From assembly GCA_964016885.1 (NCBI GenBank), contig OZ024743.1, positions 333,560,001 to 333,624,000 on the forward strand: a stretch of 64,000 nt of DNA, given 5' to 3'. A model generated the notes under the pieces. That model was not told the DNA's origin, ran no database searches, and saw only the letters and a program-made list of their open reading frames with translations. Positions 36,001-42,200 of this stretch are shown here, in pieces. Source of the DNA: Eledone cirrhosa. Lineage: Eukaryota. The translations under genes and the position numbers were made by a program. Position 1 is the stretch's first letter; every line of letters begins with the position of its first letter.

Positions 36001-38808
36001 AACCAGTAAAGAGTGTAGTGCCCCATCATGGCTGCAGTTTGATGACTGAAACCAGTAAAGAGTGTGGTGCTCCATCATGGCTGCAGTTTGATGACTGAAA
36101 CCAGTAAAGAGTGTAGTGCCCCATCATGGCTGCAGTTTGATGACTGAAACCAGTAAAGAGTGTAGTGCCCCAGCATGGCTGCAGTTTGATGACTGAAACC
36201 AGTAAAGAGTGTGGTGCTCCAGCATGGCTGCAGTTTGATGATTGAAACCAGTAAAGAGTGCAGTGCCCCATCATGGCTGCAGTTTAATGACTGAAACCAG
36301 TAAAGAGTGCAGTGCCCCATCATGGCTGCAGTCTGATGACTGAAACCAGTAAAGAGTGTGGTGCTCCAGCATGGCTGCAGTTTGATGACTGAAACCAGTA
36401 AAGAGTGTAGTGCCCCATCATGGCTGCAGTTTGATGACTGACACCAGTAAAGAGTGTAGTGCCCCAGCATGGCTGCAGTTTGATGACTGAAACCAGTAAA
36501 GAGTGTGGTGCTCCAGCATGGCTGCAGTTTGATGACTGAAACCAGTAAAGAGTGTGGTGCCCCATCATGGCTGCAGTTTGATGACTGAAACCAGTAAAGA
36601 GTGTAGTGCCCCAGCATGGCTGCAGTTTGATGACTGAAACCAGTAAAGAGTGTAGTGCCCCAGCATGGCTGCAGTTTGATGACTGAAACCAGTAAAGAGT
36701 GTAGTGCCCCATCATGGCTGCAGTTTGATGACTGAAACCAGTAAAGAGTGTAGTGCCCCAGCATGGCTGCAGTTTAATGACTGAAACCAGTAAAGAGTGT
36801 GGTGCTCCAGCATGGCTGCAGTTTGATGACTGAAACCAGTAAAGAGTGTAGTGCCCCAGCATGGCTGCAGTTTGATGACTGAAACCAGTAAAGAGTGTAG
36901 TGACCCATCATGGCTGCAGTTTGATGAATGAAACCAGTAAAGAGTGTAGTGCCCCAGCATGGCTGCAGTTTGATGACTGAAACCAGTAAAGAGTGTAGTG
37001 CCCCATCATGGCTGCAGTTTGATGACTGAAACTAGTAAAGAGTGTAGTGCCCCAGCATGGCTGCAGTTTGATGACTGAAACCAGTAAAGAGTGTAGTGCC
37101 CCAGCATGGCTGCAGTTTGATGACTGAAACCAGTAAAGAGTGTGGTGCTCCAGCATCGCTGCAGTTTGATGACTGAAACCAGTAAAGAGTGTAGTGCCCC
37201 ATTATGGCTGCAGTTTGATGACTGAAACCAGTAAAGAGTGTAGTGCCCCAGCATGGCTGCAGTTTGATGACTGAAACCAGTAAAGAGTGTGGTGCTCCAG
37301 CATGGCTGCAGTTTGATGACTGAAACCAGTAAAGAGTGTAGTGCCCCAGCATGGCTGCAGTTTGATGACTGAAACCAGTAAAGAGTGTAGTGCCCCAGCA
37401 TGGCTGCAGTTTGATGACTGAAACCAGTAAAGAGTGTAGTGCCCCAGCATGGCTGCAGTTTGATGACTGAAACCAGTAAAGAGTGTAGTGCTCCAGCATG
37501 GCTGCAGTTTGATGACTGAAACCAGTAAAGAGTGTGGTGCTCCAGCATGGCTGCAGTTTGATGACTGAAACCAGTAAAGAGTGTGGTGCTCCAGCATGGC
37601 TGCAGTTTGATGACTGAAACCAGTAAAGAGTGTGGTGCTCCAGCATGGCTGCAGTTTGATGACTGAAACCAGTAAAGAGGGTGGTGCCCCAGCATGGCTG
37701 CAGTTTGATGACTGAAACCAGTAAAGAGTGTGGTGCCCCAGCATGGCTGCAGTTTGATGACTGAAACCAGTAAAGAGTGTAGTGCCCCAGCATGGCTGCA
37801 GTTTGATGACTGAAACCAGTAAAGAGTGTAGTGCCCTATCATGGCTGCAGTTTGATGACTGAAACCAGTAAAGAGTGTAGTGCCCCATCATGGCTGCAGT
37901 TTGATGACTGAAACCAGTAAAGAGTGTGGTGCCCCAGCATGGCTGCAGTTTGATGACTGAAACCAGTAAAGAGTGTGGTGCTCCAGCATGGCTGCAGTTT
38001 GATGACTGAAACCAGTCAAGAGTGTGGTGCTCCAGCATGGCTGCAGTTTGATGACTGAAACCATTAAAGAGTGTAGTGCTGCAGCATGGCTGCAATTTGA
38101 TGACTGAAACCAGTAAAGAGTGTGGTGCCCCAGCATGGCTGCAGTTTGATTACTGAAACCAGTAAAGAGTGTGGTGCCCCAGCATGGCTGCAGTTTGATG
38201 ACTGAAACCAGTAAAGAGTGTGGTGCCCCAGCATGGCTGCAGTTTGATGACTGAAACCAGTAAAGAGTGTAGTGCTCCAGCATGGCTGCAGTTTGATGAC
38301 TGAAACCAGTAAAGAGTGTGGTGCTCCAGCATGGCTGCAGTTTGATGACTGAAACCAGTAAAGAGTGTGGTGCTCCAGCATGGCTGCAGTTTGATGACTG
38401 AAACCAGTAAAGAGTGTAGTGCCCCAGCATGGCTGCAGTTTAATGACTGAAACCAGTAAAGAGTGTGGTGCTCCAGCATGGCTGCAGTTTGATGACTGAA
38501 ACCAGTAAAGAGTGTAGTGCCCCAGCATGGCTGCAGTTTGATGACTGAAACCAGTAAAGAGTGTAGTGCCCCATCATGGCTGCAGTTTGATGAATGAAAC
38601 CAGTAAAGAGTGTAGTGCCCCAGCATGGCTGCAGTTTGATGACTGTAACCAGTAAAGAGTGTGGTGCCCCATCATGGCTGCAGTTTGATGACTGAAACCA
38701 GTAAAGAGTGTGGTGCCCCAGCATGGCTGCAGTTTGATGACTGAAACCAGTAAAGAGTGTAGTGCCCCAACATGGCTGCAGTTTGATGACTGAAACCAGT
38801 AAAAGAGT
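1..38808. repeat. 49-bp tandem satellite/minisatellite array, 792 monomers in the window, continuing past the left edge. Consensus TRGTGCYCCAKCATGGCTGCAGTTTRATGACTGAAACCAGTAAAGAGTG
   Basis: Read directly from the sequence. The monomer starting at position 1 recurs in exact phase at 38760 (=1+791x49). About 47% GC, with a PstI site (CTGCAG) in nearly every unit. Common variable sites are monomer positions 2 (A/G), 7 (C/T), 11 (T/G) and 26 (G/A). ATG starts in the ORF track differ by multiples of 49 (e.g. 38724-406=782x49). Confidence 0.99.
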
Positions 38809-38824
38809 AAAAAAAAAAGAAAAG
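38760..38824 (+). mobile_element. Putative 3' terminus and A-rich tail of a non-LTR retroposon (SINE/LINE), probable seed of the 49-bp satellite
   Basis: The last monomer ends ...ATGACTGAAACCAGTAAAAGAGT (4 A's versus 3 in the other units), followed by A10-G-AAAA-G, which is a typical retroposon tail. The monomer resembles, from memory only, the 3' end of an abundant Octopus SINE-type repeat (GGCGGTGCTCCAGCATGGCCGCAGTCAAATGACTGAAACAAGTAAAAGAG). This has not been checked against a database. Confidence 0.55.
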
Positions 38825-38857
38825 TAATCTATATATTTATTTGTTTATTTTATTCAG
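38824..38857 (+). promoter_or_regulatory. Spliceosomal 3' splice site: candidate branch point, T-rich tract and CAG acceptor
   Basis: GTAATCTATATATTTATTTGTTTATTTTATTCAG. A TAAT branch-like motif has its A at about 38827, 30 nt upstream of the AG at 38856-38857. There is no other AG in between, and the tract is T-rich. Confidence 0.82.
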
Positions 38858-38977
38858 AAATTCCCTGACAATGAAGGGCCACACGACATGCCATATGAAT
38901 CTAAGTTCATAAAATGCTCAAAATGTCTTCGGATAAATAATGCTGATGCCCGTTTCTGTGATTGGTGTGGTAACAGG
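38858..38977 (+). CDS. Internal coding exon (120 bp, phase 0-0) encoding a C4 zinc-ribbon motif; tentatively from a double zinc ribbon and ankyrin repeat protein (DZANK1-like)
   Basis: Translation KFPDNEGPHDMPYESKFIKCSKCLRINNADARFCDWCGNR contains C-x2-C-x3-N-x3-ARF-C-x2-CG, the zinc-ribbon/DZR signature. Only this frame is open; the other two + frames hit TAA or TGA. It is flanked by TTCAG| and |GTAAGT. The DZANK1 assignment rests on motif resemblance only. Confidence 0.85.
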
Positions 38978-38983
38978 GTAAGT
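38975..38983 (+). promoter_or_regulatory. 5' splice donor AGG|GTAAGT
   Basis: Perfect GTAAGT intronic consensus at 38978-38983, directly after codon 40 of the open frame. Confidence 0.87.
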
Positions 38984-38996
38984 GCTTTATTTAATA

Positions 38997-39029
38997 ACTA
39001 ACTGGTCCCGTGCTGTCAAAAATGATGGC
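38997..39029 (-). mobile_element. Possible decayed Helitron-type 3' terminus (hairpin, 10 nt, then TTAG|T)
   Basis: GCTGTCA-AAAA-TGATGGC (39012-39029) becomes the perfect hairpin GCCGTCA-AAAA-TGACGGC if two CpG>TpG changes are reversed. On the minus strand it is followed 10 nt later by TTAG then T, one mismatch from the Helitron CTRR|T end. The match is short and could be chance. Confidence 0.22.
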
Positions 39030-39210
39030 TAATTGTAGTATTTTATATATAGAAAGGGTGCAAAACCAAGTTTTTAGTTTCAACCCTTTAGTATTTACAA
39101 TACTCTATATTTACTATTGTATTTTCATGGTAACAGCTTTATCTTACATAATATTGAATCTATGAGAACAATACCTTAACATCAGTATAAGCAGCCAGTT
39201 ACAGCCGATT

Positions 39211-42200
39211 AATACTGTTGACCAATACTGTCATTATTGTCTACTTCTGTTGACCAATACTTTCATTATTGTCTACTTCTGTTGATCAATAGTGTTATTA
39301 TTGTCTACTAGTGTTGACCAATACTGTCATTATTGTCTACTACTGTTGACTAATACTGTCATTATTGTCTACTTCTGTTGATCAATAGTGTTATTATTGT
39401 CTACTTCTGTTGACCAATACTGTTATTATTGTCTACTACTGTTGACCAATACTGTCATTATTGTCTACTACTGTTGACCAATATTGTCATTATTGTCTAC
39501 TTCTGTTGACCTATACTGTCATTATTGCTTACTACTGTTGACCTATACTGTCATTATTGTCCACTTCTGTTGACCAATACTGTCATTATTGTCTACTACT
39601 GTTGACCAATACTGTCATTATTGTCTACTACTGTTGATCAATACTGTCATTATTGTCTACTACTGTTGACCAATACTGTCATTGTCTACTACTGTTGACC
39701 AATACTGTCATTATTGTCTACTTCTGTTGACCAATACTGTCATTGTCTACTACTGTTGACCAATACTGTCATTATTGTCTACTTCTGTTGACCTATACTG
39801 TCATTATTGCCTACTACTGTTGACCTATACTGTCATTATTGTCCACTTCTGTTGACCAATACTGTCATTATTCTCTACTACTGTTGACCAATACTTTGAT
39901 TATTGTCTACTACTGTTGACCAATACTATTATTATTATCTACTACTGTTGACCAATACTTTGATTATTGTCTACTACTGTTGACCAATACTGTCATTATT
40001 GTCTACTACTGTTGACCAATACTGTCATTATTGTCTACTACTGTTGACCAATACTGTCATTATTGTCTACTACTGTTGACCAATACTTTGATTATTGTCT
40101 ACTACTGTTGACCAATACTGTCATTATTGTCTACTTCTGTTGAACTATACTGTCATTATTGCCTACTACTGTTGACCTATACTGTCATTATTGTCTACTA
40201 GTGTTGACCAATACTTTCATTATTGTGTACTACTGTTGACCAATACTGTCTTTATTGTCTACTACTGTTGACAAATACTGTCATTATTGTCTACTTCTGT
40301 TGACCAATACTGTCATTATTGTCTACTACTGTTGACCAATACTGTCATTATTGTCTACTTCTGTTGACCTATACTGTTATTATTGCCTACTACTGTTGAC
40401 CTATACTGTCATTATTGTCCACTTCTGTTGACCAATACTGTCATTATTCTCTACTACTGTTGACCAATACTTTGATTATTGTCTACTGTTGACCAATACT
40501 GTCATTATTGTCTACTTCTGTTGACCTATACTGTCATTATTGCCTACTACTGTTGACCAATACTGTCATTGTCTACTACTGTTCACCAATACTGTCATTG
40601 TCTACTACTGTTGACCAATACTGTCATTATTGTCTACTACTGTTGACCAATACTGTCATTGTCTACTACTGTTGACCAATACTGTCATTATTGCCTACTA
40701 CTGTTGATCTATACTGTCATTATTGCCTACTACTGTTGACCTATACTGTCATTATTGTCCACTTCTGTTGACCAATACTGTCATTATTCTCTACTACTGT
40801 TGACCAATACTGTCATTATTGTCTACTACTGTTGACCAATACTGTCATTATTGTCTACTTCTGTTGACCTATACTGTCATTATTGCCTACTACTGTTGAC
40901 CAACACTGTCATTGTTTACTACTGTTGACCAATACTGTCATTGTCTACTACTGTTGACCAATACTGTCATTATTGTCTACTACTGTTGACCAATACTGTC
41001 ATTATTGTCTACTACTGTTGACCAATATGGCATTGTCTACTACTGTTGACCAATACTGTCATTATTCTCTACTACTGTTGACCAATACTGTCATTGTCTA
41101 CTACTGTTGACCAATACTGTCATTATTGTCTACTACTGTTGACCAATACTGTCATTGTCTACTACTGTTGACCAATACTGTCATTATTGTCTACTACTGT
41201 TGACCAATACTGTCATTATTGTCTACTTCTGTTGACCAATACTGTCATTATTGTCTACTACTGTTGACCAATACTGTCATTATTGTCTACTTCTGTTGAC
41301 CAATAATGTCATTATTGTCTACTACTGTTGATCAATACTTTCATTATTGACTACTACTGTTGACCAATACTGTCATTATTGTCTACTACTGTTGACCAAT
41401 ACTGTTATTATAGTCTACTTCTGTTGACCTATACTGTCATTATTGTCTACTTCTGTTGACCAATAATGTCATTATTGTCTACTACTGTTGACCAATACTG
41501 TCATTATTGCCTACTACTGTTGACCTATACTGTCATTATTGTCTACTACTGTTGACCAGTACTGTCATTATTGTCTACTACTGTTGACCAATACTGTCAT
41601 TATTGTCTACTTCTGTTGACCAATACTGTCATTATTGTCTACTTCTGTTGACCAATAATGTCATTATTGTCTACTACTGTTGATCAATACTTTCATTATT
41701 GACTACTACTGTTGACCAATACTGTCATTATTGTCTACTACTGTTGACCAATACTGTTATTATTGTCTACTTCTGTTGACCTATACTGTCATTATTGTCT
41801 ACTTCTGTTGACCAATAATGTCATTATTGTCTACTACTGTTGACGAATACTGTCAATATTGCCTACTACTGTTGACCTATACTGTCATTATTGTCCACTT
41901 CTGTTGACCAATACTGTCATTATTGTCTACTACTGTTGACCAATACTGTCATTATTGTCTACTACTGTTGACCAATACTGTCATTGTCTACTACTGTTGA
42001 CCAATACTTACATTATTGTCTACAACTGTTGATCAATACTGTCAATATTGTCTACTACTGTTGACCAATACTTTCATTATTGTCTACTACTGTTGACCAA
42101 TACTGTCATTATTGTCTACTCTGTTGATCAATACTGTCATTATTGTCTACTTCTGTTGACCAATACTGTCATTATTGTCTACTACTGTTGACCAATACTG

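Follow-up and report, generated by a model that had tools for sequence, protein, structure and literature searches.

A 64,000-nucleotide stretch of the Eledone cirrhosa genome (C4:333560001-333624000, here called the window) consists almost entirely of two different tandem repeats, with a short island of other sequence between them in which a single coding exon can be recognized. This raises the question of whether the exon belongs to an intact gene and, if so, how introns of this kind arose and whether they serve a function. An initial annotation, made from the sequence alone, compared the locus with the satellite-filled giant introns of Drosophila Y-linked fertility genes, which need a dedicated transcription and splicing program. 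What we observed is a real exon of DZANK1 between two very large locus-specific minisatellite arrays.

The exon between the arrays belongs to DZANK1

Tandem Repeats Finder, applied to the window, leaves a 404-nt island between a 49-bp array (positions 1 to 38808) and a 32-bp array (positions 39213 to 64000). The island begins with an A-rich end like the terminal repeats of the SINE-like element described below, followed by a polypyrimidine tract and an AG acceptor at 38856-57 (together 38809 to 38857, plus strand). The coding exon comprises 120 nt (38858-38977, plus strand, phase 0/0), and the donor of the next intron lies at 38978 to 38985 on the same strand, with GTAAGT beginning at 38978. 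The encoded peptide of 40 amino acids contains a CxxC...CxxC pattern. As the initial annotation had suggested, we searched for homologs of this peptide. The sole homolog found was DZANK1 of O. sinensis, in which residues 354 to 393 are the counterpart, with 31 of 40 positions identical (78%; E 2.5e-15), so the coding likeness is not a chance one. Over the last 22 residues, 21 match, and all four cysteines are kept. The intact in-frame exon with canonical splice sites that had been proposed is confirmed by these results.

Two other statements of the initial annotation hold only in part. It described an intact four-cysteine zinc ribbon; the cysteines are there, but they correspond to positions 1-20 of the 45 in Pfam DZR, below the curated cut-off, and the second half of the double zinc ribbon is encoded by exon 10, 101 kb downstream (Pfam DZR at residues 373-419 of the O. 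sinensis protein). It also considered the 400 bp unique, which is true of the exon, with a depth of 10-14 in two runs, but not of about 39082-39206. This part is a piece of a dispersed repeat with many copies, with up to 17 overlapping BLAST hits in the 1.07 Mb of other loci searched and a depth of 1e5-1e6 in the two runs. Exon 9 had no cover in two runs that we guess to be RNA and from another organism, which is evidence neither way.

When the O. sinensis DZANK1 protein (XP_029638162.1, 785 aa) was searched against the genome, every part of the gene was found on C4, on the plus strand and in order, from 333431751 to 333739735 (307,985 nt, or 308 kb), as one locus. An 18-exon model encodes 778 aa with GT-AG at all junctions and no internal stop, and 634 of 777 aligned residues (81.6%) are identical to the O. 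sinensis protein. The one gap of the model is filled by a coding microexon of 25 nt with strong splice sites (C4:333701749-333701773, plus strand), which was the best of 356 candidates tested locally, with a score of 175 versus 136 without the microexon. This brings DZANK1 to 19 coding exons, and the window exon is number 9. Homology extends over the full length of a protein with Fn3-associated, double zinc ribbon, and ankyrin Pfam domains, with the domain order shared at ~82% identity, and the conservation of exon 9 (31/40) is on par with that of the rest of the gene. Compared with the known DZANK1, the protein is unremarkable, and the intron content alone is unusual here. We rejected the reading of exon 9 as an orphan or pseudo-exon because the full DZANK1 gene lies in order around it. 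A 709-aa form of DZANK1 in O. vulgaris lacks the last 77 residues and keeps the counterpart of exon 9. DZANK1 has been described as a cilia and dynein-1 transport protein (PMC4617706), and it has been linked to dynein-1 transport and the ciliary transition zone (10.64898/2026.06.11.731632).

Two introns are filled by unrelated minisatellites

Intron 8 measures 146,756 nt, of which 144,700 nt (98.6%) form the 49-bp array (C4:333454109-333598808, about 2,950 units), and the window holds the 3' part of this array on the plus strand. Intron 9 measures 101,003 nt, of which 100,728 nt (99.7%) form the 32-bp array (C4:333599213-333699940, about 3,170 units), with its 5' part in the window, also on the plus strand. 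In the window, Tandem Repeats Finder gave the first array a period of 98/147; by monomer analysis, 2,949 of 2,952 monomers are 49 bp long. Minus their arrays, the two introns would come to 2,056 and 275 nt, similar to the other introns of DZANK1. Smaller arrays occupy 21,374 nt of intron 15 (a 39-mer) and 5,608 nt of intron 1 (a 48-mer; both in the 18-exon numbering). Introns make up 305,648 of the 307,985 nt of the gene (about 99%), and the four arrays account for 272,410 of these intron bases (89%).

The initial annotation put the tandem repeat around the exon at more than 63 kb. It was right about the repeat and fell short on the size, which is 245 kb, or about 99% of both introns. Its view that each intron grew its own satellite agrees with our results, as the 49-bp and 32-bp units are unrelated and both are locus specific. 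All 1,738 genome matches of the 49-mer tandem junction fell in the DZANK1 region, and so did all 1,136 matches of a 25-nt probe from the 32-mer. The units differ on average by 2.7% (49-bp array) and 4.2% (32-bp array) from the majority unit.

Growth of the arrays and soundness of the assembly

The two big arrays hold 142 and 156 distinct monomer types, with divergence even along each. Identical blocks of 248, 219, 213, 184, and 138 units occur at many spacings; the longest identical runs reach 138 and 248 units in the two arrays, and the longest exact internal repeats measure 6,844 and 7,911 nt. From the many spacings of the identical blocks, we infer that both arrays grew by nested multikilobase duplications.

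The arrays might be real and yet be overstated or misplaced by the assembly. Such an error would be in keeping with the internal stretches of 6.8 and 7.9 kb that are duplicated exactly and with the short-read contigs, none of which spans an array-exon junction by at least 31 letters on each side. In runs X3 and X4, which are one sample and possibly the assembly's own source, the contigs that match exactly cover 38786-39031 only and extend 21-23 nt into the 49-bp array. However, typical accurate long reads are longer than 6.8-7.9 kb, so that the exact repeats are shorter than such reads, and no N base was found in the 334-kb and 440-kb regions (754 kb in all). The exon order is perfect across both arrays, and short-read depth rises to as much as 1e4 in 32-mer bins, against 10-14 at the exon, a rough comparison that gives no copy number. 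The variety of monomers, their even divergence, and the block pattern argue against gross misassembly as well, and we consider it quite improbable that the arrays are overstated or misplaced.

Origins of the two repeat units

The 16-nt core of the 49-mer has 1,051 exact matches in the genome, 335 of them local and 716 elsewhere, on both strands, while the reversed control has none. In the 31 dispersed copies that we inspected, one or both of two common upstream body motifs were present in 20, and neither in 11. Most of these copies have short A-rich repeats directly after the unit, and further upstream there are CORE-like (4/31) and B-box-like (2/31) motifs. The dispersed core matches and the common body motifs identify the 49-bp unit as the 3' end of a dispersed element, whose tail it matches. 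The parent element is probably a SINE. In octopus, the element OR1 has been classed as a CORE-SINE (PMC4824008).

A locus on C12 (L186:5000-5260, minus strand) has a SINE-like body with three tandem tails as in the 49-bp array, and the linkers of this three-copy array resemble those of the long one. Judging from these features, we regard it as an independent early stage of a tail tandem array. Two further loci, L195 and L196, hold three and four tail cores. The long array has a tail-like 3' end, and the body of the parent element is absent at its 5' end.

For the 32-bp array, the acceptor of intron 9 offers a candidate origin. The last 40 nt of the intron align to the 32-bp unit with a score of 26, compared with 10-21 for the other 16 acceptors; a score of 26 was reached by 4 of 2,000 shuffles. 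This score suggests one of two histories: growth of the array from the acceptor tract, or recruitment of a decayed last unit as the acceptor tract.

Splice signals within the arrays

On the sense strand, polypyrimidine-YAG motifs are absent from the 245 kb of the two big arrays, compared with 84 in 33 kb (2.5 per kb) of the other DZANK1 introns. The 32-bp unit itself has no AG, and its array has 0.9 AG per kb on the sense strand versus 56 in ordinary intron DNA. GTRAG occurs eight times in the 49-bp array and not at all in the 32-bp array. This scarcity of decoy sites, which rests on two units, would ease the recognition of exon 9. The 39-bp array of intron 15 contains 39 acceptor-like motifs, and the 48-bp array of intron 1 contains 23 donor-like GTRAG motifs. 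As only two units are depleted and two other arrays carry decoys, we rejected decoy depletion as proof of selection. No recursive-splicing (ratchet) sites were found with a strict pattern in the four DZANK1 arrays. Transcription and splicing across the arrays are predicted from the intact and conserved reading frame.

Neighboring genes and a candidate far-upstream promoter

There are genes on both sides of the DZANK1 locus. A gene divergent from DZANK1 has Pfam PIH1 and PIH1_CS domains (L155:5741-7540 and L150:8227-9672, minus strand), and we take it to be DNAAF2/kintoun, a cilia gene; a half X-box and an ETS-like motif lie just upstream of its start. A malate dehydrogenase gene, of which three exons with short gaps were seen (L058:348-8973, minus strand), stands tail to tail with DZANK1. 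The interval between the PIH1-domain gene and the ATG exon of DZANK1 contains four more arrays (C4:333098209-333397066), with units of 61 bp (166 kb), 28 bp (62 kb), 41 bp (3.6 kb), and 53 bp (51 kb).

The ATG exon has an acceptor 30 nt upstream, so DZANK1 probably has a non-coding first exon. In the 440 kb that we scanned for X-boxes, the sole strict X-box-like site is at C4:333096542, directly before the 166-kb array. A background of 400 kb also yielded one match to the strict pattern, and a looser pattern had seven matches in the interval's 71.6 kb of non-array DNA. If C4:333096542 were the promoter, a 335-kb first intron would hold the four additional arrays (283 kb). A half X-box 3.4 kb upstream was dropped because it sits in a reverse-transcriptase remnant.

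No host gene was found between the PIH1-domain gene and DZANK1 in 564 codon-score segments, 18 of which were taken to Pfam, a search that is weak for short exons. An 84-aa candidate exon in the upstream islands was rejected: it has no homolog and no Pfam hit and lies opposite a sequence that we take to be a LINE-like remnant. POLR3F, presumably the neighbor of DZANK1 in human, was rejected as a host of the upstream arrays, since it is located on C3. Two long open frames near the PIH1-domain gene (L115:2220-2999 and L149:2304-3404), one with a CG-1 hit, lie amid repeats and are possibly transposon related.

Tandem arrays elsewhere in the genome

Over 333.000-333.754 Mb of C4, arrays of nine units make up 556,703 of 754,000 nt (74%). 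We compared 10-kb samples, 20 taken within 1.2 Mb of DZANK1 and 40 spaced over C1-C5, C7, and C12. Wholly tandem samples numbered 7/20 nearby (two of them in one array) versus 2/40 at a distance (Fisher p 0.004), and samples that were at least 70% tandem numbered 8/20 versus 5/40 (Fisher p 0.02), both p values being indicative only.

We also took samples from seven large intervals that separate myosin-head or dynein hits, a choice biased to size. A 314-kb gap on C3 (C3:886075-1200575) contained 48-, 29-, 44-, and 40-bp arrays in 4/6 samples, although the two myosin-head hits that bound it may belong to separate genes. A 67-kb gap between myosin-head hits on C6 (C6:99955519-100022879) contained a 45-bp array in 2/3 samples. 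A myosin gap on C11 and a dynein gap on C2 were partly tandem, and three of the seven gaps (6 of 20 samples) had little tandem DNA. Using DHC_N2, we found 87 hits in 19 dynein heavy-chain clusters; the median of the 68 gaps was 1,156 nt and the longest measured 27,398 nt, which indicates that the sampled part of the kl-3/kl-5 family is not gigantic here. Two DHC_N2 clusters at C19:6705821-6811056 lie ~100 kb apart in opposite orientation with near-identical hit patterns, and they are either an inverted duplication or an assembly duplicate.

Among 21 arrays of at least 3 kb, all units were different. Units of 4/21 matched dispersed repeats in at least four loci, while reversed controls gave 0/21, so a SINE origin is not general among the arrays. 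Dispersed repeats match the 48-bp unit of intron 1 at 18 loci and the 45-bp unit of L215 at 16. Unit sizes of about 48 bp and of 39-41 bp recur among unrelated arrays. We see DZANK1 as an extreme case of a tendency that is shared more widely in this genome and most marked in this part of C4, not as a gene-specific device.

Explanations for the arrays

The explanation we favor, and hold to be probable, is a near-neutral, locus-by-locus growth of minisatellites in introns of ordinary size, with ordinary transcription and splicing predicted. Intron 8 would have been seeded by duplication of the tail of a SINE-like element; in intron 9, the intron's own acceptor tract would have been duplicated, or a decayed last unit reused as the tract. 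Growth would have followed by repeated tandem duplication, nested and multikilobase, with little counterselection. Both arrays may have been tolerated because neither the 49-bp nor the 32-bp unit has a strong decoy splice site, and exon 9, 120 nt long and with strong sites, would be recognized cotranscriptionally by exon definition.

The arrays could instead be functional, as in Drosophila Y-loop genes, with long repeat transcripts that form loops, recruit dedicated RNA-binding proteins, and time or gate the expression of a gene for cilia, for instance, while sperm develop. Arrays do make up 89% of the intron DNA of DZANK1, 283 kb more may lie in a 5' untranslated region intron, and the upstream neighbor with PIH1 and PIH1_CS domains is presumably a cilia gene. 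DZANK1 itself is a cilia and dynein-1 transport protein (PMC4617706, 10.64898/2026.06.11.731632), and kl-3 and kl-5 are cilia genes too (PMC6508621). However, arrays of this kind also turned up in gaps within myosin genes, which are not ciliary, and in samples taken at even spacing, the DHC_N2 gaps are short, and the 21 different units share no common binding sequence. We regard a function of this kind as highly improbable. A link to a dedicated program of the Drosophila type, which the initial annotation brought up, is likewise not supported: the introns are more than 10 times smaller than those of kl-3, their units are 32-49 bp long and not 5-bp satellites, similar arrays occur in the neighboring DNA and in myosin gaps, and giant introns are absent from the dynein heavy-chain regions that we sampled. 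It is also conceivable that the expansions are recent and harmful, with exon 9 now left out in frame from most transcripts, or with repeat chromatin reducing or abolishing expression of the gene. The length of exon 9 is a multiple of three, so skipping would keep the frame; the arrays are homogeneous (2.7% and 4.2%) and hence probably young; and an intronic variable-number tandem repeat (VNTR) haplotype has been tied to lower CACNA1C expression (PMC11118589). Yet exon 9 has kept strong splice sites, its four cysteines, and 21/22 of its last residues, and the whole DZANK1 frame is intact, and harmful expansion therefore seems unlikely to us.

Tentatively, intron gigantism could be genome-wide, with many ordinary genes having introns of 20-170 kb filled by their own 28-67-bp minisatellites, some seeded by SINE ends or acceptors, with DZANK1 as the extreme and with decoy-free units favored by selection. 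We think this possible but doubtful.

Comparison with known systems and significance

Drosophila kl-3 measures at least 4.3 Mb and has introns of (AATAT)n; it is expressed in spermatogenesis only and requires Blanks and Heph, and its splicing is cotranscriptional (PMC6508621, PMC11207136). DZANK1 resembles kl-3 and kl-5, as these are described there, in that small exons of a cilia-related gene are separated by introns of ~99% tandem repeat, with repeats that differ by intron or gene. As in Y-loop-type genes, ~99% of the gene is intron, mostly tandem repeat, but these are not megabase introns (146,756 and 101,003 nt). The gene is 0.3 Mb long with introns of 0.10-0.15 Mb, compared with at least 4.3 Mb for kl-3, and it has locus-specific 32- and 49-bp units, in contrast to the simple 5-bp satellites (AATAT, AAGAC), also present in heterochromatin, described for Drosophila. 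DZANK1 has ordinary genes around it and sits 45 Mb short of the end of its contig, which is 379 Mb long. Because the size and the repeat type do not fit, we do not class DZANK1 with the Drosophila Y-loop genes.

Human intronic VNTRs measure kilobases to tens of kilobases; the DZANK1 arrays are far longer, take up 99% of their introns, and stand on either side of a single exon. The repeats of CACNA1C intron 3 (PMC11118589) and ABCA7 intron 18 (PMC13747324) are similarly described as locus specific, with large internal duplications and sometimes beside a splice site. SINE-derived satellites (sSats) of reptiles reach up to 1,000 units, and their occurrence elsewhere is given as uncertain (PMC10702118). 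As in squamate sSats, the unit comes from a SINE end, there are short starter arrays with a body (here L186), and there are long homogeneous arrays (PMC10702118). Compared with the account given there, the array of intron 8 is found in a mollusc, has about 2,950 units, is confined to one intronic locus, and is not obviously subtelomeric (PMC10702118). It also has no parent body at its 5' end, and reptile variants without an extended terminal unit are reported as well (PMC10702118). In the titles and abstract openings that we searched, such cephalopod introns were not found; supplements, which could bear on this, and most subscription journals were outside that scope.

Transcription through long pure tandem DNA has been studied almost solely in Drosophila Y genes, in which repeats are hard to delete and heterochromatin and sex linkage are confounded. 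DZANK1 is a conserved single-copy gene with two repeat introns of known ends, whose unique units are specific fluorescence in situ hybridization (FISH) probes and for both of which an origin is visible. With C4:333096542 as the promoter, the transcription unit would extend over ~640 kb and include nine arrays totaling ~555 kb of pure tandem repeat, which would all be transcribed and spliced. Should the arrays be neutral, they would be of interest mainly for genome evolution. The locus indicates that satellites can be seeded by SINE tails in a mollusc. It also suggests that genes may be missed or broken up at arrays of this kind in short-read cephalopod assemblies and annotations. If intron gigantism is genome-wide, this genome would provide a natural series beyond Drosophila in which to study how satellite DNA is crossed by polymerase II and the spliceosome.
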